Below, in pieces: positions 17,100 to 60,031 of a DNA stretch of 64,000 nucleotides. The position numbers and the translations under genes are program-made. Source of the stretch: Mobula hypostoma (lineage: Eukaryota); the NCBI RefSeq assembly GCF_963921235.1, contig NC_086097.1, forward strand, positions 142,788,001 through 142,852,000. The letters are read 5' to 3'. Below the pieces are notes generated by a model. It did not search any database and was not told where the DNA came from. It saw only the letters and a program-made list of their open reading frames with translations. How positions within the stretch are numbered: the first letter of the stretch is position 1; every line of letters begins with the position of its first letter.

Positions 17100-19382
17100 A
17101 GATTCTGCAGAGTGACACATACAAGATGCTGGAGGAACTCAGCAGGTCAGACAGCATCTATGGAAAGGAATAATCAGTTGATGTTTTGGGACGAGGGGAA
17201 GGAATACAAGCTAGAAGGTGACAGGTAAAGTCAGGTGGGTGGGAGAAGAGGGATGAAGTAAGAAGCTGCACTATTCTCCACAGCTTCCACCAGCTTCAAC
17301 AGGTTCCTACTACCAAACACAATTTTATCTCTCCCTGCCCCCCCCCAACCATCTGCTTTCTGTAGGGATCACTCTCCCTGTGATTCCCTTGTCTATTAGT
17401 CCTTTCCCCCTAACCTCCCTTCTGGCAATTATCCCCAAAAGGGGAAGAAGTGCTATACCTGCCCATTTACCACTTCCATTACCTCTGTTCAGGGGCATAA
17501 AACAGTCCTTCCAGGTGAGGTAACACTTCACCCGCAGGTCTCTCGGGGTTATTTACTGTATCTGGTGCTCCTGATGTGGCCTCTTCTATTGTCAGACCCA
17601 ACATAGATTAGAGTACTGCTTTGTCAAGTATGTACCTTTGCTCCATTCACAAAAAGCAGGATTTCCCAGAAGCTAATCATTTTAATTCCAATCCCTATTC
17701 CCATTCTAATATTTTGGTTCATAGCCTCCTTTACTGCCATTATAAGGCCACTCTCAGGCTGCAGGAGAACACCTCATATTTTGTCTGGGTAGCCTCCAAC
17801 CTGATGGTACGAACATTGATTTCTCTAACACCCGATAATTCCCACCCCAACAACCCCTCCCCCCCACCATTTCCCACTCTTGGGATTCTGCAGATGCTGG
17901 AAATCCAGAGTAATGCATACAAAATGTTGGAGGAACTCAGCATGTCAGGCAGCATCAATGGAAAAGAATAAAAGGAGTCAAATTTTTGGGCCAAGACCCT
18001 GCATCAGGACTGGAAAGGAAGAGGAAAGAAACCAGAATAAGAAAGTGAAGGAAATGGAAGGAGTATAAGGTAGAATATGACAGGTGAAGCCAGTTGACTG
18101 GGAAAGATGGTGACTGGGGGGGGGGGGGGTAAAGACGTGAGAAGCTGGGAGGTGATAGGTGGAAAAGGTAAATGGTTGAAGAAGAAGAAAGCTGATAGGA
18201 GAGGGGAGTGGACCATGGAGGAAAGGAGGAAGGGCACCAGGAGATGGGGGTTGATATGCAATTGAGGAGAAGAGAAGAGGTAAGAGGGGAAGGGAAGAAG
18301 ATGGAAAGGGGAAGGGGAAAAATTATGGAAAGTTAAGAGAAATCAATGTTCATGCTGTCAAGTCGGAGACTACACAGATGGAATAAGAGCTGTTGCTCCA
18401 CCAACCTGAGAGTCGAGGAGGCCATGGACCAACATGTTGGAATGGGAATGGAGATTGAAATTAAAATGATTAGCCACCAGGAAATTCTGCTCATTGTGGA
18501 TGGAGCGAAGGCACTTGACAAAGTGTTTCCCAATCTACATCGGATCTCATTGATGTAGAGGAGACCACAGTGGAAGCACTGGATATAGTAGATGACCCTG
18601 ACAGGCTTGCAGGTAAAGCGTTGCCTCACCTGGAAGGACTGTTTGGGCTGTTAATGGAGATGAGGGAGGAGGGGAATGGACAGGTACTCCTGCTTTCAGG
18701 GATAATGCCAGAGGGAGACTGGAGGTGAAGGACAAATTGACAAAGAAACCATGGAGTGAGCAATCCCTGAGGAAAGAGAAGAGTTGGGGGAAGGTAAAGA
18801 TGTGTTTGGTGGTAGAATCCCATTGAAGATGGCAGAAGTTGGGGAGAATGATGTGCTGGATGCAGACGCACATGGAATTGCAATTAAGGACAAGAAAAAC
18901 TCTATTCCAGTTAAGGTGGTGGGAACATGGGTAACGGTGGATGTCCGGGAAATGGAGGAGATGCAGGTTAGGGCAGCATCAATGGTGGAGGAAGAGAAAT
19001 CCCATTCTTTGAAAAGGGAATACATCCCTCATCCTGAGAACAGATGCAGCAGAGTTGAAGGAACTGAGAAAAGTGAATGGCATTTTTATAGGTTACAGGG
19101 TGGGATGAAGTATAGCCAAGATAGCTGTGAGAGTCAGTAGGTTTATAAAAGATGTTGGTAGACAGTCTGTCTTCAGAGATGGAGACAGAGAGATTGAGAA
19201 AGGGGAGAGAGGTGTCAGAAATAAACTTAGTGAATTTAAGGATCGGGTGGAAGCTGGAGGCAGTTTATGAAATTGATGAGCTCAGCATGGGTGTACGAAG
19301 CAGCATTAATGCAGTCATTAGTCTAGTGCAGAAAGAAATGGGCAGCAAGACCAGTTAAAGCTTGGAACATGGGCTGTTCCAA
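17100..19382. mobile_element. Cluster of older Penelope-like fragments in -/+/- orientation
   Basis: GIY-YIG remnants (VIYYIQCFHCGLLYINE) on both strands; terminal motif gatgctggaggaactcagc at about 17125 and 17925. Confidence 0.85.
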
Positions 19383-32793: not shown

Positions 32794-33699
32794 TAATAAC
32801 ATAGACAATACACAACGAATGGAAAGGTCCCAGGGAATGCTGTTGGTACAGACAGCCCTTTGGGTACAAGGCAAACTTTCCTAGGCTGCCCCAAAATCAT
32901 TTCGGAAAGTCTACATAGTAATGGTCATTTGTAAATCTGTTGGGTTTTAGGTCAATCCAATGAATGAGAACTTCTTGTAGTCATCTCACAAATGACAAAC
33001 GTTTTGATTTGAAACATGGCCTTTACTATATTCATTTACAACGTTGTATTTCAGCTTCCAAGAGTTTTTGACAAGACTCTGCCAGAAAATTAAGCCATGT
33101 GATTTGCAGATAGAAAAAAATGGATTAAGCATAAAAACAAACGAGTTTTGAGAAGTTTATATTCTTAGGAATGGTAAGATTGCTGAGCATGTTCTTCTGA
33201 TGATGAATTCTGGTTTGTTGCCATTTCAGTATTACATGAATAACTTAGTTAAATAAATTGGTCAAATTTTGGTGCTGAGATTTGCTATAATGATACAGAT
33301 GTTCCCTGCTTTTCGAACGTTCGCTTTACGAAACCCCACTGTTACGAAAGACCTACGTTAGTACCCTATTTTCGCTAACAGAAGGTGTTTTCACTGTTAC
33401 GAAAAAAGCAGCGCGTGAAAAAGATCAGCGTGTGCCCCGAGCAGCCGCTCTCTCCCCGGATTCGGAACTGCATTCTCGCTGGCATTGCTTAAACACGTGC
33501 CTGTGAGCAGCTGTTAGCAAGATGAGTTCTATGGTATTGGAAAAGCCTGAAAGAGCTCGTAAGGGTGTTACACTTAGCGTAAAACTAGACATAATTAAGC
33601 GCAAACAACAGGAATTCTGCAGATGCTGAAAATTCAAGCAACACACATAAAAGTTGTTGGTGAACACAGCAGGCCAGGCAGCATCTCTAGGAAGAGGTG

Positions 33700-33737
33700 C
33701 AGTCGATGTTTCAGGCCGAGACCCTTCGTCAGGACTA
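33700..33737 (-). ncRNA. Minimal hammerhead ribozyme motif (variant GAAACAUC)
   Basis: Reverse strand tagtc-CTGACGA-agggtctcggcct-GAAAC-ATC-gactg. Confidence 0.65.
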
Positions 33738-36700
33738 ACTGAAGGAAGAGTGAGTAAGGGATTTGAAAGTTGGAGGGGGAGGGGGAGATCCAAAATGATA
33801 GGAGAAGACAGGAGGGGGAGGGATGGAGCCAAGAGCTGGACAGGTGATAGGCAAAAGGGATACGAGAGGATCATGGGACAGGAGGTCCGGGAAGAAAGAC
33901 AAGGTGGGGGGGGGACCCAGAGGATGGGCAAGGGGTATATTCAGAGGGACAGAGGGAGAAAAAGGAGAGTGAGAGAAAGAATGTGTGTATAAAAATAAGT
34001 AACAGATGGGGTACGAGGGGGAGGTGGGTCATTAGCGGAAGTTAGAGAAGTCGATGTTCATGCCATCAGGTTGGAGGCTACCCAGACGGAATATAAGGTG
34101 TTGTTCCTCCAACCTTGAGTGTGGCTTCATCTTTACAGTAGAGGAGGCCGTGGATAGACATGTCAGAATGGGAATGGGATGTGGAATTAAAATGTGTGGC
34201 CACTGGGAGATCCTGCTTTCTCTGGCGGACACAGCGTAGATGTTCAGCAAAGCGGTCTCCCAGTCTGCGTCGGGTCTCGCCAATATATAAAAGGCCACAT
34301 CGGGAGCACCGGACGCAGTATATCACCCCAGCCGACTCACAGGTGAAGTGTTGCCTCACCTGGAAGGACTGTTTGGGGCCCTGAATGGTGGTAAGGGAGG
34401 AAGTGTAAGGGCATGTGTAGCACTTGTTCCGCTTAGTGCCAGGAGGGAGATCAGTGGAGAGGGATGGGGGGGACGAATGGACAAGGGAGTTGCGTAGGGA
34501 GCGATCCCTGTTGAATGCAGGGCGGGGGGGAGGGAAAGATGTGCTTAGTGGTGGGATCCCGTTGGAGGTGGCGGAAGTTACGGAGAATAATATGTTGGAC
34601 CCGGAGGCTGGTGGGGTGGTAGGTGAGGACCAGGGGAACCCTATTCCTAGTGGGGTGGCGGGAGGATGGAGTGAGAGCAGATGTACGTGAAATGGGGAAG
34701 ATGCGTTTAAGAGTAGAGTTGATAGTGGAGGAAGGGAAGCCCCTTTCTTTAAAGAAGGAAGACATCTCCCTCGTCCTAGAATGAAAAGCCTCATCCTGAG
34801 AGCAGATGCAGCGGAGACAGAGGAATTGCGAGAAGGGGATGGCGTTTTTGCAAGAGACAGGGTGAGAAGAGGAATAGTCCAGATAGCTGTGAGAGTCAGT
34901 AGGCTTATAGTAGACATCAGTGGATAAGCTGTCTCCAGAGACAGAGACAGAAAGATCTAGAAAGGGGAGGGAGGTGTTGGAAATGGACCAGGTAAACTTG
35001 AGGGCAGGGTGAAAGTTGGAGGCAAAGTTAATAAAGTCAACGAGCTCTGCATGCGTGCAGGAAGCAGTGCCAATGCAGTCGTCGATGTAGCGAAGGAAAA
35101 GTGGGGGACAGATACCAGAATAGGCACGGAACATAGATTGTTCCACAAAGCCAACAAAAAGGCAAGCATAGCTAGGACCCATACGGGTGCCCATAGCTAC
35201 ACCTTTAGTTTGGAGGAAGTGGACATCAACCATCTTGACTTCACCGCACCTTGTCCCCATTCCAACCTCACTCCTTCGGAACGCTCTGCTCTCCACTCCC
35301 TCCGTACTAATCCTAACCTTATTATTAAACCTGCCGATAAGCGGGGGTGCTGTTGTAGTCTGGCGTACTGACCTCTACCTTGCCAAGGCACGGCGACAAC
35401 TCACGGATACCTCCTCTTATTTACCCCTCGATTGTGACCCCACTAAGGAGCACCAGGCCATTGTCTCCCACACCATCACCGACTTTATCCGCTCAGGGGA
35501 TCTCCCATCCACTGCTACCAACCTTATAGTTTCCACACCTCGCACTTCCCGTTTCTACCTCCTACCCAAGATCCACAAACCTGCCTGTCCTGGCCGACCT
35601 ATTGTCTCAGCTTGCTCCTGCCCCACCGAACTCGTTTCTGCATACCTCGACACGGTTTTATCCCCCCTTGTTCAATCCCTTTCAACCTATGTTCGTGACA
35701 CTTCTCAGCTCTTAAACTTTTCGAAGATTTTAAGTTTCCTGGCCCCCACCGCTTTATTTTCACCATGGATGTCCAGTCCCTATATACTTCCATCCCCCAT
35801 CAGGAAGGTCTCAAAGCTCTACGCTTCTTTTTGGATTCCAGACCTAATCAGTTCCCCTCTACCACCACTCTGCTCTGTCTAGCGGAATTAGTCCTTACTC
35901 TTAATAATTTCTCCTTTGGCTCCTCCCACTTCCTCCAAACTAAAGGTGTAGCTATGGGCACCCGTATGGGTCCTAGCTGTGCCTGCCTTTTTGTTGGCTT
36001 TGTGGAACAATCTATGTTCCGTGCCTATTCTGGTATCTGTCCCCCACTTTTCCTTCGCTACATCGACACTGCATTGGCGCTGCTTTCTGCACGCATGCAG
36101 AACTCATTGACTTTATTAACTTTGCCTCCAACTTTCACCCTGCCCTTAAGTTTACCTGGTCCATTTCCAACACCTCCCTCCCCTTTCTAGATCTTTCTGT
36201 CTCTGTCTCCGGAGACAGCTTATCCACTGATGTCTACTATAAGCCTACTGACTCTCACAGCTATCTGGACCATTCCTCTTCTCACCCTGTCTCTTGCAAA
36301 AATGCCATCCCCTTCTCGCAATTCCTCCGTCTCCGCCGCATCTGCTCTCAGGATGAGGCTTTCCATTCTAGGACGAGGGAGATGTCTTCCTTCTTTAAAG
36401 AAAGGGGCTTCCCTTCCTCCATTATCAACTCTGCTCTTAAACACATCTCCCTACGTTCCCTACGCAACTCCCTTCTCCATTCGTACCCCCCATCCCTCCC
36501 CACTGATCTCCCTCCTGGCACTAAGCGGAACAAGTGCTACACATGCCCTTACACTTCCTCCCTTACCACCATTCAGGGCCCCAAACAGTCCTTCCAGGTG
36601 AGGCAACACTTCACCTGTGAGTCGGCTGGGGTGATATACTGCGTCCGGTGCTCCCGATGTGGCCTTTTATATATTGGCGAGACCCGACGCAGACTGGGAG

Positions 36701-37225
36701 ACCGCTTTGCTGAACATCTACGCTGTGTCCGCCAGAGAAAGCAGGATCTCCCAGTGGCCACACATTTTAATTCCACATCCCATTCCCATTCTGACATGTC
36801 TATCCACGGCCTCCTCTACTGTAAAGATGAAGCCACACTCAAGGTTGGAGGAACAACACCTTATATTCCGTCTGGGTAGCCTCCAACCTGATGGCATGAA
36901 CATCGACTTCTCTAACTTCCGCTAATGACCCACCTCCCCCTCGTACCCCATCTGTTACTTATTTTTATACACACATTCTTTCTCTCACTCTCCTTTTTCT
37001 CCCTCTGTCCCTCTGAATATACCCCTTGCCCATCCTCTGGGTCCTCCCCCCACCTTGTCTTTCTTCCCGGACCTCCTGTCCCATGATCCTCTCGTATCCC
37101 TTTTGCCTATCACCTGTCCAGCTCTTGGCTCCATCCCTCCCCCTCCTGTCTTCTCCTATCATTTTGGATCTCCCCCTCCCCCTCCCCCTCCAACTTTCAA
37201 ATCCCTTACTCACTCTTCCTTCAGT

Positions 37226-37263
37226 TAGTCCTGACGAAGGGTCTCGGCCTGAAACGTCGACTG
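37226..37263 (+). ncRNA. Minimal type I hammerhead ribozyme motif, intact core
   Basis: agtc-CTGACGA-agg..cct-GAAAC-GTC-gact: stem I agtc/gact, short stem II, palindromic ACGT in place of stem III, GUC cleavage triplet. Confidence 0.8.
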
Positions 37264-37791
37264 CACCTCTTCCTAGAGATGCTGCCTGGCCTGCTGCGTT
37301 CACCAGCAACTTTTATGTGTGTTACATAATTAAGCGTTTCGATCGTGGTGAACGAAGTAAGGACTAAGTGAGTTTGGCTTGTGGAAGCTGATGAAGATGA
37401 TGTTGAAGAGGTTTTGGCATCCCATGACCAAGAACTGATAGATGAAGAGCTGAGGCAATTGGAAGAGGAAAGGATAACAATCGAAACCGAATGAGTAATG
37501 ATTAAGTACGACTTCAATTTTGAAAGGGTACGTCGGTTTAGGGGATTATTTGCAGGATGGTTTGAGTGCTTACAAAGAACTGTATGATAGAAAAATGCGC
37601 GAGGCTCAGCAGTTAAGCAAGCCTTCCACATCAGCCACAGCAGACAACGAATCTCGACCTTCGACATCGAGGCGGGCAGTTATAGGAGAAGATGAGCTGC
37701 CTGCTCTAATGGAAACAGACGATGAGATTGCACCCCAGTGTCCCACCACCCCAACCCCCAGGCCGCGGACAGATACTGATTCGTGGAGAAT

Positions 37792-38025
37792 GCAGCGGTA
37801 CCCGGGAGGCACACAGCACATCTTTAAGAAAAATGCCGAAATAAACATGCTAATTAATTAGGTGCTGCCTGACACATAATTGTCGGCCCAGATCAGAGGC
37901 AATGCAATTGGCAATCGGCACTGATCTGGGCTGACAATTACGTGCCGGGCGGCACCTAATTAATTAGCATGTTTATTTCGGCTTTTTTCTTAAAGATGTG
38001 CTGTGTGCCTCCCGGCTACCGCTGT
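37792..38025. repeat. Long imperfect hairpin (about 105-110-bp arms) inside the Tigger element
   Basis: gcagcggtacccgggaggcacacagcacatc...cagatcag pairs with ctgatctgg...gatgtgctgtgtgcctcccggctaccgctgt. Confidence 0.95.
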
Positions 38026-39734
38026 ACTGCTGCATGCTTCGCGATCGGTATCGGTTCGCTGCCAGGAGGGTGCCACTGCATCACCCAAACTCCGACGACT
38101 CAGTCTAACACACCATCATCAGTGTGCTCTGTGATGTCCCAATTCCAGTAAGTGATACTACACTGTACATACATTATTTCTACTTTATATTGGCTGCGTA
38201 CCTTAACGTGTTATTTGGTATGATTTGGCAGCTTCATAGCTTAAAGGTTACTGGAGAGCGCTTGCGTCGTGCTTTTGCTGACGGTGCTTGCGTGAGATTT
38301 TCGCTACGGAGAACAGTTCAGGCAATGATTGTGGAAAAGTATTTCTACTTTATATAAGCTGTGTATTTATCATATCATTACTGCTTTTACTATATATTAC
38401 TGTTATTTTAGGTTTTATGTGTTATTTGGCATGATTTGGTAGGTTATTTTTGGGTCTGCGAACGCCCACAAAATTTTCCCATATAAATAAATGGTAATTG
38501 CTTCTTCGCTTTACGACATTCCGGCTTACGCACCGTTTCATAGGAATGCTCTACCTTCGGATGGCGAGGGAAACCTGTACCAGACAAGAATCTTCAGTTA
38601 TGAAAAAACAGTTCAAGGGTATATTTTGGATAAAATACATAACTGGGCAGAGGAATAGAAGATGAAAACTTAATTTGCCATTAAATATAAAAAGATAAAT
38701 GTCCAACGCACCTGCACTTCATGAATAGTGTTTAAAAGATGAAAAGGTTCTTGAGAGTTAACGCAGACTTAATGCTCAAGAAGTCCTACAAATGTGAAGT
38801 AGCAAACAGGATGTTTCAAAATTCACGTCTGTGTCAACCATGATGCCAAAACAAACTAATCCCATCTGCTTCATGTGGTCTATATCCCTCCCTTCCCTGC
38901 CAGTTCACATTTCCTGTATATTGGCCCTCACCCCATCCTCCCACTACGATAACAGGGATAGGGTTCCCTTTCTCCTTACCTGCCACCACACGAGCTTCTG
39001 TATCCAGCCAATCATCCACCGTAACTTCCACCATCTACAGCGGGACCCCACCACTTTGCACATTTCCCTCTCCGCACTCTCTCTGCCTTCTGTAGGGATC
39101 ACCTTATACGTGATGCCCTTGTTTACTCATCCCTCCCCTCTGATCTCCCCGCTGGCACACTCCTACACCTCCCCTCTCCTACAATTAATGTCCTTCCAGG
39201 TGAGGAGTCTCCAAGTCTGTTAGAGTTATCTATTGTATTCAGTGCTCCCAGTAAGGCTTCTCTACATTGGTGAGGCCCAATGTAGACTGGGGGACTGCTT
39301 TGTTGAACACCTTTACTCTACCCGCTGCAAAAACTTAAATTTCCCTGGTGGCCACTCATTTCAAATCGACTTCCCATTCCCTTTACAACATTCACAGTCT
39401 TCTCTACTGCTACGATGAGGCCACACTCAAGTTGGAGGAGCAACACTCCATATTCCATCTCAGTAGCCTACAACCTGATGGCATGAATATAGACTTCTCT
39501 AACTTGGTAATTTCTATCCCGCCCCCTTTCTCTCTCTTTCCATTTCCCATTCCAGTTCTCCTCTTACCCTTCTCCTCACCTGCACATCACCTCCTTCTCG
39601 TGTTCACTCCTGTTTCCCTTACTTCCATGGTCCATTGTCCTCTCCTTTTAGATTCCTTCTTCAGCCCTTTACCTCTTCTATTTATCCAGCTTCTTACTTT
39701 ATACCTTCTCCTCTACCCATCCACCTTCCTCCTC

Positions 39735-40237
39735 GGACTCTTTCTCCCCGGACCTCCTCTCCCATGGTCTTTCTCCCTGGACCTCCTGTCCCATGTAACT
39801 TCCGCTAATGCCCCACCTCCCCCTCGTACCCCATCCGTTACTTATTTTTATACACACATTCTTTCTCTCACTCTCCTTTTTCTCCCTCTGTCCCTCTGAC
39901 TATACCCCTTGCCCATCCTCTGGGTTCCCCCCCCCCCCGCTGTCTTTCTCCCCGGACCTCCTGTCCCATGATCCTCTCATATCCCCTTTGCCAATCACCT
40001 GTCCAGCTCTTGGCTCCATCCCTCCCCCTCCTGTCTTCTCCTATCATTTTGGATCTCCCCCTCCCCCTCCCACTTTCAAATCTCTTACTAACTCTTCCTT
40101 CAGTTAGTCCTGACGAAGGGTCTCGGCCTGAAATGTCAACTGTACCTCTTCCTAGAGATGCTGCTGGCCTGCTGCATTCACCAGCAACTTTGATGTGTGT
40201 TGCTTGAATTTCCAGCATCTGCAGAATTCCTGTTGTT
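39735..40237 (+). mobile_element. Young solo Penelope terminal repeat
   Basis: Matches about 36913-37323; 13-bp TSD caccttcctcctc at 39722-39734 and 40238-40250. Confidence 0.92.
40105..40142 (+). ncRNA. Minimal hammerhead ribozyme motif (CpG-decayed)
   Basis: tagtc-CTGACGA-agggtctcggcct-GAAAT-GTC-aactg. Confidence 0.6.
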
Positions 40238-40952
40238 CACCTTCCTCCTCACCTGGTCTCACCTATCACCTACCAGCTTGTACTCCTGCCCCTTTCCCAC
40301 TGCCTTATTCTGGATTGTGGCCCTTTCCTTTCCAGTCCTAATAAAAAAAAACACAATATGAAATGTCTTTTGTTCATACCCCTCTATAGATCCTGCTTGA
40401 CTTGCTGAGATCCTCTTGCATCTTGTATGTGTATATCCTCTTAAAAACCAAGATTTCAGATACAGTAGAACTCTGTTAATTCAGCACACTCCACACTTCA
40501 GTGGTGGTAAACTAGCAGACTTTCTGGGCTTTTGAATATTATTCTATTAATATTCTATGACTATTAATTAATTTTTTTAGAAAATGTTGCACAGAGGAAT
40601 CATATTTTTTTCCAGTGAACCCAATAAATTTAAAGGGACCACATGATCCTGGAGAGTCTAAAGAGAGCTGTGTATTTCCAATTTGTTTTTTTTTGTTTAT
40701 TATTAAGAATGATTCAAGGATCATTTCTTTGATGATAGAACATTGAACAGTACAGCGTAGTATAGGCCCTTCGGCCCATGATGTTGTGCTGAAGTTTTAA
40801 CCTACAAGACTAGTCTAATGCTTCCCTCACACATAGCTCTTCATAACCCACCCTTGTGATTAGTTGGCTATATTGTTAATTCTAACAAGCTTATAATGTT
40901 ATGTGAAAAATTCCCATTAATTTAGAGGCCTTACAAAACATAATCTACTTAC

Positions 40953-51701: not shown

Positions 51702-53257
51702 CAATACACACAAAATGCTGGAGGAACTCAACAAGCCAGGCTATGGAAAAAAAATACAGTCGACGTTTCCCGCCGAAACCCTTGGGTTGGGCAAAACTGG
51801 AGAAAAACAGCAGAGGAGTAGATTTGAAAGGTGAAGGGAGGATGTGAAACTTGGAGAGGAGGGATGAAGCAAAGAGCTAGAAAGTTGATTGGTGTAAGGG
51901 ACAGAAGGTCATGGAAGAAAGGGGGGACAGAGGAGCACCTGAGGGAGGCAATGGTTGGGCAAGGAGATAACGAGGCAAAAGGGGATGGGGGGGAGGCGTT
52001 ACTGGGTTTGAGAAATTGATGTTCATGCCATTGGGTTGGAGGCTACCCAAATGAAATATAAGGTGTTGTTCCTCCAACCTAAGTGTGGCTTTATCACAAC
52101 AGTGGAGGAGGCCATGGATGGACATATCAGAATGGAAATGGGAAGTGGAATTAAAATGGGTGGCCACTGGGAGATCCCACTTGCTCGGTGAAGCCGGACT
52201 CCCAGTCTGTGCTGGGTCTCACCAATATACAGGAGGCCACACTGAGAGCACTGTACACAGTTTATGACCCCAAGGACTGTTTGAGGCCCTGAATGGTAGT
52301 GAGGGAGGAGGTGTAGGGGCAGGTGTAGCACTTGTTCCGCTTGCAAGGATAAAGGCTAGGAGGGAGATCAGTATTAGAACACTACAGCACAGAAACAGGC
52401 CCTTCAGCCCATCTAGTCTGTGCCAGACCATTAAACTGCCTCAGCCTATCACCTTGCTGCCAGACCACAGTTTTTCCATACCCCTCCTATCCACATACCT
52501 ATCCCAATTTCTCTTAACTGTTATCTAACTTATATCTACCACTTGTGCTGGCAGATCATTCTACAATCTTACCATCCTGAGTGAAGATGTTCCCCTTAAA
52601 CATTTTACCTTTCACCCTTAACCATGACCTCTAGTTCTAGTCTCACACAAACTCAGTGGAAAAAGCCTACTTGCATTTACCCTATCTACACCCCTCATAA
52701 TTTTGTATACCTCTGTTAAATCTCCCCTCAGTCTTCTACAGGAATAAAGTCCTAATCTACAAGTCCTAACCTTTGAGAAAGGTAAAATTATAAAAATAGG
52801 GGAAAGATAGCCACTAGTCTTCAAGGTATAGATTCCAGCAAATCAATGGCTCAAAGCAGCACAACCTGGAGTACTCAGATTGAAAATCTGGCTAAATCGA
52901 GCTATAGCAACAATCTCTTACTTGACAGTGGGGAGGGACGAATGGAAAAGGGAGTTGCATAGGGAGCGATCCCTGCGGAAAGCCAAAAGTGGGGTGGGGG
53001 GGGGGAAGAAAGATGTGTTTGGTGGTGGGATCCAGTTGGAGCCGGCTGAAGTTTCAGAAAATTACATGCTGGATGTGGAGGCTGGTGGGGTGGTAGGTAA
53101 GGACAAGAGGAACCCTATCCCTGATAGGGTGGCCGGAGGATGGGGTAAGAGCAGATGTGTATGAAATGGAAGAGATGCAGTTGAGGGCAGCTTTGATGGT
53201 GGAGGAAGGGAAGCCCTTTCCTTTGAAAAAGGAGGACATCTCCTTCGTTCTAGAATG
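51702..53257 (-). mobile_element. Older Penelope-like fragment interrupted by a CR1 3' fragment (about 52375-52765)
   Basis: CSQCGLLYIGET, LEEQHLIFHLGSLQP, DRVPLVLTYHP; CR1 RRLRGDLTEVYKI. Confidence 0.85.
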
Positions 53258-53777
53258 AACAGAACCTGAAGATTATTATGTAGTTGGTTTGAATTTATGG
53301 GAGCGGGGAGAAGTGAAGAATTGGTTAGTCAGCAGAAAGTATCAGTTCTATGGAAGGAGTGGTCTGTTTTTATTTAATCAACAATCATCTGGAGGAGCTC
53401 AGCAAATTCAGCAGGAATTGTTGACATTTCGGGTTGAAACCCTACATGCATCAGGACTGAAAATGGGGAGGTGAAGTGGCCAGCAATACAGAGGACAAGG
53501 GAGTGAGGTGAATGGTGGATTGAAGAGGGGTATAAGATGACAGGGCAGATTGCACCAAATCAGGGAAGGGATCAGGAGTGGCTTTGGGAGACTCGAGCAA
53601 GTAAATAATAGAGGTAAGAATTGAGAGGTAGATAGATCAAGGTAGAGGGAGGGGAGTGTGAAGGCTGGAGACTACTATGGAAAGGGGGAAGTGGGAACAC
53701 AAAGGACAGACAGTGATGGAATCTGATAAGGGGGAGATAATGGGAACCCTTGGAGGCTTAGAGAGAGCCAAATGGCA

Positions 53778-54607: not shown

Positions 54608-55629
54608 ACTTTTTTTCTTGTAACTTGGAATGTAATGACATTGAAGATTGGAGGGTGGCTTGTTCTTGATAGTTGAGGTGATCATTCCTGGTTTCTTCTT
54701 TATGGTTATTGGTTGGGGCTGCCCCATGGCTTTGGTATAATTGTGCTGAAAGGAAGGAAAAATTCATATAGTGAAATAACATGCCATTTAACAGGAGGCA
54801 TAATATTCTGTTATAAACAACTCTAGCATTTTGCATTGAGTATTGGACATTAGGTCTTTGGGGGTATAAATCTGAAACACACTGCCACTAAAAAAATGAG
54901 TGCTGAGTCAACTGAAACTTTCAAGACTGAGATCCATAGTTGTATGACATTAGTTAACTCACTGTGAATTAGGGATAGAACTTTGAACCATAAAAAGGGA
55001 TAAACTTACTCAGAACAGGCTGGGTACTTAACGCTAATGCTTTGGATAAGCACCATCCAAATTTTCAGCTTTGTATCTGAAAACTGTTTCTGAGAACAGT
55101 TTCAAAGTAAAGATAAAGACACTTCTATTCAGTGAAGCACAATATGATCTTAAATACTTTATTAAACTTTGTACAGTACTTATTTTCAGAAGGGCCTGGC
55201 TTTAATTTTTTTGCCAGTAATTTCAGTCTCTATCTCAAAACTAAATAATATATTCTTCATGCAGAAGACATGACTGGGTTCCTTTTGGTCACTTTTTTTC
55301 TTGTAACTTGGAATTTAATGACATTGAAGATTGGAGGGTGGCTTGTTCTTGATAGTTGAGGTGATCATTCCTGGTTTCTTCTTTATGGTTATCGGTTGGG
55401 ACTGCCCCATGGCTTTGGTATAATTGTGCTGAAAGGAAGGAAAAATTAATATAGTGAAATAACATGCCATTTAACAGGAGGCATAATATTCTGTTATAAA
55501 CAAATCTAGCATATTGCATTGAGTATTGGACATTAGGTCTTTGGGGGTATAAATCTGAAACACACTGCCACTAAAAAAATGAATGTTGAATCAACTGAAA
55601 CTTTCAAGACTGAGATCCATACTTGTATG
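54608..55629. repeat. 339-bp direct duplication (54608-54946 and 55291-55629) around a 344-bp unique spacer
   Basis: Colinear copies offset by 683 bp, differing by scattered substitutions. Confidence 0.95.
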
Positions 55630-57232
55630 TTGACTAAGGATGTGGAACAAAGGAAAGTAAATAGTTTGAAGAATGGAAGTAAAACTAGACCCTTACGAAT
55701 CCTTGCAGCATCTGGTGACGCTGTAATCTCTGTCTCAGGCCGAAGTCAACATCTTTCAAGGGAGTGTATCTTTGCAAGGCGTCAGGCCCCAATGGTGTAC
55801 CTGATAGGGCACTGAAAACCTGTGCCAATCAACTAGTGTTCAAGGATATCTTCAATCACTCAGTGCTGTAGTTGGAGGTTCCCACCTGTTCGAAAGGGTG
55901 TCAAACATATCAGTGCCCAAGTAGAGCAGAATGAGCTGCTTGAATGATTATTGCCCAGCTGCACTCACATCTACTGTGATGAAGTGCTTTGAGAAGTTGG
56001 TCGTGGACAGAATTAATTCCTGCCTAAGCACGGACCTGGACTCACTTCATTTTGCCTACCGGCACAATAGGTCTACAGCAGATGCAATCTCACTGGCTAT
56101 CCATTCGGTCTTGAACCACGGAGCCAGCAGCAATACCTACACCAAGCTGCTGTTTATTGATTTCAGTTCAGTGTTCAACACCATCATCGCCTCAGTATTA
56201 ACCAATAATTTTCAAAACTTTGGGCTTCTGTACCTCCCTCTGCAACTGGACCCTTTATTTCCTTATTGGAGATCACAGTCAATGCAGATTGGAAAAACAT
56301 CTCCCCCTCACTGACAATGAGCATCGGCGAATCTCAAAGATGTGTGCTTAGCCTGCTGCTCTCTCTACATCCATGACCATGTGTCTAGGCACAGCTCAAA
56401 CACTATCTATAAGTTTGCCAAGACACAACTGTTGTTGGCAGAATCTTAGATGGTGATGAGGAGGCGTACAGCAGTGGGATATATTGTCTGGTTGAGTGGT
56501 GTTGCAACAATAACCTTGCACTCAATATCAATAAGACTAAGGAATTGATTGTGGACTTCAGAAAGGCAACTCGAAAGAAGACACACCAGTTCTCATCAAG
56601 GGATTAGTAGTGGACAGGGATGAGCAGTTTCAAGTTCCTGGGTGTCAACATCTCTGAACATTTATCCTGGGCCCAACATATTGATGCAGTTATGAAGAAA
56701 GCACCCTAGTGGTAAGTAGAGCAAACTCATCTTCAGATTCCTAGACCTGGGACTCAATACCACCCCCCACCCTTTCATCTGGATTGTTGACTTCCTGTCC
56801 AACACACTGCAATCAGTAAGGATAGGCAGCAACACCTTCACTATGATTATCCTCAGTGCTGGTGCCCCACAAGGCTGTATGCTCAGTCCTCTACTTTACT
56901 CCTTAAACTATGAGTCAGAATACGGGAAGAAATATAGAGCCAAGCCATGTCAACAACCTTTACCTCAGTGTCAGCAAAACAAAAGAGCTGGTCATTGATT
57001 ACAGGAAGGGACATCAATGGAACTGAGGATGACATGCTTGAGAGCTTCATGTTCCAGGATTAAACATCACTCTTAGCCTGTAGTCGTCCAAACACATAGA
57101 TACCATAACCAAGAAAGCACACAAGTGCTTCTACTTCTATAGGAGGCTAAAGAAATTTGGCATGTCCCCGTTGACCATCCATTACCAATTTTTACAGATA
57201 TACTATAATAAATCAACCTATTCATTTGCATT

Positions 57233-58291
57233 CAACATTCATCAAAGTTGCTGGTGAACGCAGCAGGCCAAGCAGCATCTATAGGAAGAGGTGCAGTGGA
57301 CGTTTCAGGCCGAGACCCTTCGTCAGGACTAACTGAAGGAAGAGTGAGTAAGGGATTTGAAAGTTGGAGGGGGAGGGGGAGATCCAAAATGATAGGAGAA
57401 GACGGGGGGGGGGCGGTGGATAGAGCCGAGAGCTGGACAGGTGATAGGCAAAAAGGGATACGAGAGGATCATGGGACAGGAGGTCCGGGAAGAAAGACAA
57501 GGGGGGGGGTTGACCCAGAGGATGGGCAAGAGGTATATTCAGAGGGACAGAGGGAGAAAAAGGAGAGTGAGAGAAAGAATGTGTGCATAAAAATGAGTAA
57601 CAGACGGGGTACGAGGGGGAGGTGGGGCCTTAGCGGAAGTTAGAGAAGTCGATGTTCATGCCATCAGGTTGGAGGCTACCCAGACGGAATATAAGGTGTT
57701 GTTCCTCCAACCTGAGTGTGGCTTCATCTCCACAGTAGAGGAGGCCGTGGACAGACATGTCAGAATGGGAATGGGATGTGGAATTAAAATGTGTGGCCAC
57801 TGGGAGATCCTGCTTTCTCTGGCGGACAGAGCGTAGATGTTCAGCAAAGCGGTCTCCCAGTCTGCGTCGGGTCTCACCAATATATAAAAGGCCACATCAG
57901 GAGCACCGGACGCAGTATATCACCCCAGTCGACTCACAGGTGAAGTGATGCCTCACCTGGAAGGACTGTTTGGGGCCCTGAATGGTGGTAAGGGAGGAAG
58001 TGTAAGGGCATGTGTAGCACTTGTTCCGCTTAGTGCCAGGAGGGAGATCAGTGGGGAGGGATGGGGGGGGACGAATGGACAAGGAAGTTGTGTAGGGAGC
58101 GATCCCTGCGGAATGCAGAGAGAGGGGGGGAGGGAAAGATGTGCTTAGTGGTGGGATCCCGTTGGAGGTGGCTGAAGTTACGGAGAATAATATGTTGGAC
58201 CCGGAGGCTGGTGGGGTGGTAGGTGAGGACCAGGGAAACCCTATTCCTAGTGGGGTGGTGGGAGGATGGAGTGAGAGCAGATGTACGTGAA
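57233..58291 (-). mobile_element. Young 5'-truncated Penelope-like element (GIY-YIG and terminal repeat)
   Basis: Very similar to about 33640-34692; 13-bp TSD attcatttgcatt at 57220-57232 and 58292-58304. Confidence 0.95.
57294..57331 (-). ncRNA. Minimal hammerhead ribozyme motif
   Basis: Reverse strand tagtc-CTGACGA-agggtctcggcct-GAAAC-GTC-cactg (one stem I mismatch). Confidence 0.7.
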
Positions 58292-60031
58292 ATTCATTTG
58301 CATTACCGCTTTGTATGGCAACTGCTCTCCCCAAGATGACCATGTAAGAGAGACTAGATTACAGGGAAATAGGTGATGGAATAGGACTGATGGGAATGCT
58401 CTGGAAGCTGGCCTTGTTTAAGTGGGCCTCCTGAGTTCTGAGACCAAAATGAAAACTACACTCTTCCTTCATGAGCCTAAAGATCTGCCTCTATTTCTGC
58501 CAATCCTGAGATCAGTTAATATTTAGATGGTAGCACATCCTTGAGTCCAAGTATTACTCTTTATGGAAGTGTTGAGAGCAAGTGTCTGGATATTTAAAAA
58601 CAAATGCTTTAAATTTAACCAATCTGCCAATCATGTGATTGATGGCCATTAGTTGGTCTGAGTTCGTGATTTTCAACCTTTGCATTTGATATCTTTGGAA
58701 TTTCAAGAATCTGATTCAGCAATAACAGAATACTGAACCAGCACTTGTACAATAACAGCTTTGACAAAATATGTTTTCCAATAAATGTAGCTACCAAAAT
58801 TCTGGCAAGATATTATAGAACAAACCACAGGCAGCAGGCATAGTATGTTAGTAGTAGGGCAGACAGCTGACCAAACTTGTGGCTCTCTCCTGGGAAGCAC
58901 CAGTTTCTTAAGTATCAGTTCCAATTCTCTGCTGAAAGCTTAAAATTAATTTCACTGCTGTAAAACTTCTATTCATTGCTGTGTTCCTAATTTTGTTTTG
59001 GTATTTATTGAGTTAATCCTTAAAAATGTAATGTATTCTGATCAGTCACACACCAAAGGGAAACATTCCATATTTGAGAGGTGGTCCAGTAGCTAAAAAT
59101 CTTGGACTATTATCCAGAAATGTAAATAGAAATTCTATCTTGGTATCTTGGTATCTTGGGAAAATTTTTAAAGGACGCTGAAGCTTAGAGAGTATTACTA
59201 AATGTGATCATGAGTTGATGTAAAAATCCAGCTATTTCACACTGTCTTAGGTAAGGTGGTCTGGTTGCACCTGTGACTATAGTCCCATATCAATGCAGCT
59301 GATTCATAACTTTAAAGCTGTACAAGATATTTCGGCACTGACGAGGGCGATTTATTCTGTTGAATCTGTGCTGGCAATTTGCAAAGCAATACAGGTAGTT
59401 GCAATATTCCTTTCTCTGGAACCTTGCAAATGATCTTCCCTCAAATACTTTAAAAAACCCTGATTGGATGCATTCCTTTCATCCTTACAGCACATTATTT
59501 CAAGAACTTAGAAAACTCCCACTTTTGCTCCTTATATTCTGCTAATCACTTTAAATATGTGTACTTTGATCCCTAAGTTATTTCCTAAGGAGAATAACTC
59601 ATATCTTCCTATCTGAACCCATAACGTTCTTGTAAACGTCTTATATGTCCATGGAACACTCTCTGCTCCAAAGATCAATCCAAGTTCTTCCTCCTGTTCA
59701 ATACTTTTGTGTGGAAGTTCCTCATCTCAGGAATTTTATTTACAAATCTTCTTTGCATCTTTCCTAGAATTTTTACAATCTTCCTAAAGTGTTGCCAATG
59801 TAATTATATGCAATATTCCAGTTGGAGCCCAGTCACTATTGTAGAAGTTCAATTTTTTTTTATCAAATCAGAACAAATCGCAGTGCAGAAGGACCTCATA
59901 CAGCTACTCAGGCCCTTCTTTTGGCCAAAACATTGAACCATTTGGGTTACTGTCACTTCTCATAGAGAAATATGGCATCAAAACTTGCCCTTCAGTCTTT
60001 ACGCTCATCCCATTTATTTCCCACTTTCTAG

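Follow-up and report, generated by a model that had tools for sequence, protein, structure and literature searches.

Introduction

Head-to-head joining is described as the most frequent inversion among Penelope-like elements (PLEs), whose typical layout comprises an inverted 5'-truncated copy at the 5' end, one target site duplication (TSD) and a tail of 30-40 bp at one end only (PMC3846280; PMC8557442). The closest layout to the one studied here is that of Adineta Pen2a/Pen2, which have inverted pseudo-long terminal repeats (pLTRs), a TSD of 9-10 bp and a 31-bp tail at one end (PMC3846280; scheme in the legend to Fig. 2 of PMC8557442). As reported for the anole, the Poseidon protein nicks and extends both strands in vitro, prefers ATT and is predicted to be dimeric; its reverse transcriptase (RT) starts at two sites, and the interval between them is the tail (PMC11167929), a term that we use as in PMC8557442 and PMC11167929. 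Here, we analysed a 64,000-nt stretch of the Mobula hypostoma genome (NCBI RefSeq GCF_963921235.1, contig NC_086097.1, forward-strand positions 142,788,001 to 142,852,000; hereafter the window, numbered from its first letter), which carries such a dimer inside a Tigger-type DNA transposon. The dimer is a real, dead, tail-out PLE insertion of a known kind, a fossil. With moderate confidence, we read it as a dead insertion of a high-copy, endonuclease-positive (EN+) PLE with a Neptune/Nematis-type linker, which would have arisen by two-ended priming and later undergone arm-to-arm conversion.

Structure of the insertion

In the assembly, the insertion measures 3,722 bp and consists of two 5'-truncated PLE copies placed head-to-head within one target duplication. 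The left arm runs on the minus strand from 35222 to 33602 (1,621 nt), and the right arm on the plus strand from 35223 to 37323 (2,101 nt). On the 5' side the right arm extends 703 nt further, which makes the dimer asymmetric and leaves a loop of about 0.7 kb. The paired sequence falls into blocks of 524 and 860 nt, separated by a right-arm deletion that a first-pass annotation of this DNA had put at roughly 190 bp; 199 nt were lost and 9 nt gained, a net loss of 190. The join, placed by the same annotation at about 35221, lies between 35222 and 35223, where the right arm begins inside the D codon of its relatives' R-D-I-N motif and the first base of that codon is the last base of the left arm.

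The 13-bp TSD is exact and has no further occurrence in the window, and the chance of such a match is about 3e-6 when 100 offset pairs are considered. It bounds the dimer as the annotation had claimed, and, with genuine element 3' ends abutting both of its copies, it bears out the proposal of a single insertion event. A palindrome and a second duplication were looked for at the junction and neither was found; two independent insertions are ruled out by the missing second duplication.

The target had been named as the helix-turn-helix (HTH) frame of a Tigger element, and this identification holds. The terminal inverted repeats (TIRs) are imperfect and TA-flanked, the HTH reading frame stays open across the reconstructed empty site, and the frame gave a CENP-B_N feature match with a score of 0.93 (a family present on 34% of cluster members), which we take as a lead; a 26-aa Tigger piece had no match in Pfam or PDB. 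A wholesale assembly artefact is unlikely because the TSD is exact, the empty site is in frame and each arm has decayed privately. In public contigs, the unique left flank shows 0 differences over 413 nt in organism A and 3 over 424 nt in organism B.

Public contigs of two organisms contain other joints of the head-to-head type in this family, at 34656 to 35344 (runs X1 and X5) and 34187 to 35367 (X1); the rows listed were 15 joints out of 1,558 and 12 inserts out of 609. An "opposite strands" joint from 35222 to 35925 was discarded as proof of the junction, being the normal continuation of any intact copy. Missing flank in run X18 (organism F) was not accepted as a sign of an empty site, and the summed depth of the contigs, which runs to millions where the unique flank has 8.8 in X1, does not equal copy number.

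Table 1. Positions of the dimer and its host element in the window
Feature	Position	Strand	Remarks
Tigger-type DNA transposon, left part	33296..33588	+	TIR at 33296 after TA; CENP-B-type HTH frame from ATG 33522; high-copy contig depth
Left TSD copy, 13 bp	33589..33601	.	
3' tail, 38 nt, left arm only	33602..33639	-	36-nt tail also on the 39735-40237 copy
Left arm, 5'-truncated PLE	33640..35222	-	RT C-half with intact YIDD, thumb, linker, GIY-YIG (+1 frameshift), 3' untranslated region/pLTR
Minimal hammerhead motif, left arm	33701..33736	-	G>A at 33707 breaks palindromic 15.2-16.2 pair
Putative homogenised patch, left copy	33708..34457	-	1 substitution and one 6-nt slip relative to right arm; 0 substitutions in 33913-34457
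Head-to-head junction	35221..35223	.	1-2 nt possible microhomology
Right-arm-only 5' extension, 703 nt of RT N-half (inverted-repeat loop)	35223..35925	+	
Right arm, portion pairing with left arm	35926..37323	+	1-nt deletion in YIDD, +1 frameshift in GIY-YIG, tail absent
Right-arm deletion scar	36449..36457	+	9-nt insert: 7 nt of downstream flank repeated plus 2 nt
Putative homogenised patch, right copy	36500..37255	+	
Minimal hammerhead motif, right arm	37227..37262	+	core intact
Right TSD copy, 13 bp	37324..37336	.	
Tigger-type element, right part, internally deleted	37337..38577	+	right TIR ends at 38577 before TA

Proposed priming and joining of the arms

The 3' end points of the arms, estimated by the first-pass annotation to differ by about 35 nt, differ by 38 nt, the left arm being the longer. 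The 3' terminus of the right arm falls within 1 nt of that of the copy at 57233, and the terminus of the left arm within 2 nt of that of the copy ending at 40237. Because each of these independent copies has its own 13-bp duplication, we take both outer ends of the dimer to be true priming ends, one of each class.

One integration, through a staggered cut 13 nt apart, took place at an AT-rich site of the Tigger element. We propose that both 3'-OH ends then primed reverse transcription, a distal start giving the left arm with its tail and a proximal start giving the right arm without it. The complementary DNAs (cDNAs) would have halted at different points, after 1.6 and 2.3 kb (lengths prior to the deletion), and been joined head-to-head over 1-2 nt. 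Afterwards, as the observed pattern shows, both arms decayed neutrally by about 1.5% each, mainly through transitions, and the right arm lost 199 nt. In a last step, late arm-to-arm conversion across the 2-kb gap would have rewritten some 750 nt in the interval from the deletion to the 3' ends, and private changes such as the +1 base would thereby have become common to both arms.

Priming from both target strands is plausible and is the best fit, and this half of the annotation's mechanism is retained. Its remark that inverted termini are known for Penelope elements agrees with the layout published as typical (PMC3846280; PMC8557442). The annotation had offered fold-back DNA synthesis, in which one arm was copied from the other during insertion, as a second route. 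The high identity of the outer block is in its favour, yet we consider it extremely improbable and in effect exclude it because each arm has sequence absent from the other: the 38-nt tail is found on the left only and the 703 nt of 5' sequence on the right only, the arms are not nested, and on the right a canonical 3' end lies directly against the TSD. Only an exact removal of the right tail down to the canonical short end, with the TSD left untouched, would rescue it. Self-priming with an antisense template is a model for head-to-head PLE inversions with palindromic junctions and thus addresses the arrangement seen here (PMC3846280); at this junction there is no palindrome and the arms are 703 nt apart, which leaves it very improbable.

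Another alternative is that the source locus was itself an inverted dimer, transcribed through and copied as a unit. This would give one TSD and arms differing from birth, and the arms do differ at 34844, where the family is split 50-86%. We nevertheless judge it quite improbable: the left end lies at the canonical tail end and not at a random truncation, 34844 is a CpG transition, and by our own polarisation the private changes are split about evenly between the arms, as in decay in place.

The deletion scar in the right arm may reflect end joining with a templated insert, and its form resembles the signature of polymerase-theta end joining.

Probable sequence exchange between the arms

The arms differ at 23 substitutions over 1,384 aligned nt, and these are distributed very unevenly, with 16/524 in the inner block followed by 3/42, 1/750 and, in the last block, 3/68. 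Transitions account for 21 of the 23 differences, nine of them at CpG sites, and the 750-nt patch contains 20 CpG of which none differs. Sequence beside the patch is about 3-5% divergent between the arms, and the inner edge of the patch sits 42 nt from the right-arm deletion. When 200,000 random placements were permuted, the 545-nt clean run had a P of 1.9e-4, and 750 nt with at most one change a P of 1e-5.

Base frequencies in the family were taken from public contigs of 4 of the 24 listed runs mapped to 32900-35925, with 40 of 109 variant rows. At 34029, the family mostly has the other base (97% of depth in run X1), and at 34232 the other base makes up 99% of depth; the arms share the rare base at both. 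The +1 base at 34115 is clipped or omitted in public contigs of the family. Among the rows listed, the sole two inner-block sites with more than 90% of the other base (35068 and 35165) occur in the left arm alone; in the 703 nt of 5' sequence confined to the right arm, such private sites number at least nine.

The locus thus presents a bounded identity patch between diverged paralogs with derived bases in common, as expected of a gene-conversion tract. Because the patch is bounded and carries shared rare bases between inverted arms that are otherwise 3% diverged, it probably reflects arm-to-arm gene conversion, to judge from the sequence pattern. This conversion would date to roughly the final fifth of the time since insertion. 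A search of the open-access literature turned up no paper that describes conversion between the arms of inverted PLEs; on the human Y, palindromes are reported to undergo biased conversion (PMC3723533).

The annotation had listed three variants as common to the arms and absent from a copy that it placed at 57233-58291 (57233-58293 in our analysis). The +1 base (actcaaggtt), said to frameshift the GIY-YIG C-terminus, is present in both arms at 34115/34116 and has that effect, and cgctgtgtcc and gtaaagatga are indeed shared against that copy. For the third variant (34133-34134), two older copies share the arms' base at 34133, and the difference may be the 57233 copy's own change. Since all three fall within the 750-nt patch and the arms are 3% different elsewhere, the "same defective source" that the annotation attached to its two-strand priming is unsupported.

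Several points weigh against our reading of priming and conversion. Within the patch, 3-6 identifiable derived changes are common to the arms, whereas a single full conversion of recent date would predict about 11 (P 0.003-0.06), a shortfall that requires repeated or ancestral/GC-biased conversion, or an undercount. One shared change, 33649, falls beyond the patch; for the inner block, derived changes common to both arms were judged from the same 40 of 109 variant rows, and some may exist there. A single template or subfamily for both arms is still likely because both arms have the same allele at five sites beyond the patch that are polymorphic in the family (a chance of about 0.05 were these unlinked). 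Among the contigs on 32900-35925, no listed piece bridges 33601 and 33602 or 35222 and 35223. Finally, double-ended priming was demonstrated in vitro for another clade, and the steps after priming are given as unvalidated (PMC11167929).

The shared change at 33649, the common alleles at the five polymorphic sites, the low number of shared changes and the presence of rare variants in both arms would all fit a rival in which both arms were copied from one already defective template, inheriting the +1 base and the other variants with no later conversion. This rival leaves a rate of one substitution in 750 nt unexplained, where 23 would be expected at the inner-block rate, and the confinement of the three cited variants to the patch also speaks against it; we regard it as improbable.

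Alternatively, the dimer could be real and its identical patch made by assembly or polishing, one arm having been copied over the other. The arms are not resolved by reads, and inverted PLE structures are described as troublesome for assemblies; such a patch artefact is less well excluded than a wholesale one. Polishing with reads from a very high-copy family should, however, pull the sequence towards the family majority, yet the patch keeps bases absent from 97-99% of depth; the 6-nt slip and one substitution survive inside it, and both of its margins are divergent. We consider this unlikely and keep conversion as the preferred account of the patch.

Affiliation of the element

Arm fragments match RVT_1 and GIY-YIG below the curated cut-offs, while relatives exceed the GIY-YIG cut-off. 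In tblastn, the arms are collinear with an 806-aa RT/GIY-YIG relative, and the closest named proteins are from sharks and rays (75% and 70% identity), which points to a cartilaginous fish as host. A CCHH endonuclease motif, formed by a CxxC within the GIY-YIG core and two downstream His, is present in the arm translations and in relatives. The element therefore shows the features of EN+ PLEs: a single ORF with an RT followed by a C-terminal GIY-YIG, the CCHH motif, a minimal hammerhead, a one-sided tail, an inverted truncated copy and a TSD.

A CX2-5CxxC linker is described as marking Neptune/Nematis and as absent from Penelope/Poseidon (PMC8557442). Upstream of GIY-YIG, we found this linker in 42 of the 46 relatives that show the core (of 120 matches), in P0002, the nearest protein from a shark, and, judged from its sequence, in the older copy at 52 kb. 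Because the relatives carry the linker, whose absence characterises Penelope/Poseidon, the clade looks Neptune/Nematis-type; the annotation's name "Penelope" is correct at the class level but probably wrong at the clade level. Nine nucleotides of the linker, including the first Cys, are missing from both arms (34434-34435 on the minus strand, 36522-36523 on the plus strand) and from the 57233-58293 copy. The arms retain only the CxxC, and the older copies and many public contigs have the 9 nt. A subfamily whose Zn-finger linker is shortened has been mobilised on at least two occasions.

A hammerhead core motif was present in all four young copies in a pattern search with criteria from PMC4209133, and a search of Rfam detected no hammerhead. 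A single minimal hammerhead is reported not to have cleaved in vitro (PMC4209133). Read-through RNA could pair over 860 and 524 nt, with duplex energies of -1873 and -1047 kcal/mol that merely restate complementarity, and only one hammerhead would be sense in it, lying within the duplex. The double-stranded RNA stem with a hammerhead that the annotation had put forward is geometrically possible and remains speculation; the core change in the left hammerhead, the reported lack of cleavage and the failure to find a host exon in the 88 frames searched speak against it.

Neighbouring repeats and coding content

The three young PLE insertions of the window all have 13-bp duplications. The family is also represented at 57220-58304 by a simple monomer, 5'-truncated, with a separate duplication (57220 and 58292) and the short 3' end. 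The young tailed copy at 39722-40250, with a C/T-rich duplication (39722 and 40238), sits inside the 3' part of an older PLE (38908-39505 onward), and its 5' end holds short repeated pieces of an internal segment, a pattern that template jumps would give.

Older PLE sequence is also present. Fragments at 17272-17846 (plus strand) and 17882-19381 (minus strand), about 68-74% identical to the arms, are arranged tail-to-tail, opposite to the dimer. The older copy at 52006-53262 (minus strand) is split at 52372-52931 by about 550 nt of unrelated sequence, probably a fragment of a long interspersed element (LINE). At 54608-55590, at least 300 nt are duplicated locally in direct orientation, with 97% identity and a spacing of 683 nt.

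In the right Tigger part, a near-perfect hairpin at 37752-38072 (111-nt arms, 91%, 10-nt loop; self-similar over about 320 nt) is probably a miniature inverted-repeat transposable element (MITE). Rfam microRNA matches at 37857-37960 are far under the gathering scores and were rejected as reflecting this DNA hairpin.

No host exon was found with Pfam among 88 of the 245 open frames of at least 70 aa, mostly those outside the repeats of the window. These 88 frames gave four Pfam matches, all to RT/endonuclease or to ALKBH8_N, the latter LINE-associated.

Discussion

The locus alone matters little, being a dead copy in a layout already described for PLEs. It is nonetheless a clean example of how PLEs may complete integration after priming, a stage given as unvalidated in PMC11167929, as it rules out fold-back and fits two-ended priming at two start sites. 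The patch is also a warning that variants common to inverted arms need not trace to the template.

A broader possibility, which we put forward tentatively, is that tail-out dimers of this very abundant shark and ray PLE family arise by two-ended priming in which one arm regularly has the tail and the other does not, and that they then act as thousands of mini-palindromes with arm-to-arm conversion in tracts stopped by large indels. If this is true, the genome would be an in vivo record of how PLE integration finishes and a natural assay of the rate and GC bias of short-range conversion, and arm identity would be unusable for dating such insertions.

Among known systems, L1 twin priming is one in which both target strands prime cDNA, with microhomology at the inversion point and one TSD; the 3' end is present once, and the second primer is internal. 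The dimer shares the two-strand priming (as proposed here), the possible junction microhomology and the single TSD, but both of its arms carry the 3' end, and an L1-type inversion is ruled out on this ground.

The Anolis Poseidon element PAc has an RT with a C-terminal GIY-YIG, a minimal hammerhead, 3' end classes about 37 nt apart and an AT-rich, ATT-containing target (PMC11167929), all as at this locus; unlike Poseidon, the relatives here have the CX2-5CxxC linker, and one other young copy here has a C/T-rich target. With Neptune/Nematis (PMC8557442), the element shares the CX2-5CxxC linker of its relatives and the CCHH endonuclease, although the arms and the 57233 copy are without the 9 linker nt including the first Cys. 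The Y-chromosome palindromes (PMC3723533) resemble the dimer in having inverted arms homogenised in tracts, but they are very large and segmental, whereas the conversion proposed here concerns one locus, a dead retroelement with arms of 0.9 kb that lie about 2 kb from each other.

Compared with Adineta Pen2a/Pen2 (PMC3846280; PMC8557442), the dimer differs in its 1.4-kb arms (0.2-kb pLTRs in Adineta), 13-bp TSD, 703-nt spacer, non-palindromic junction and homogenised patch. Both have an inverted 5'-truncated copy joined at its 5' end in a head-to-head arrangement, one TSD, a one-sided tail and an internal deletion in one copy.

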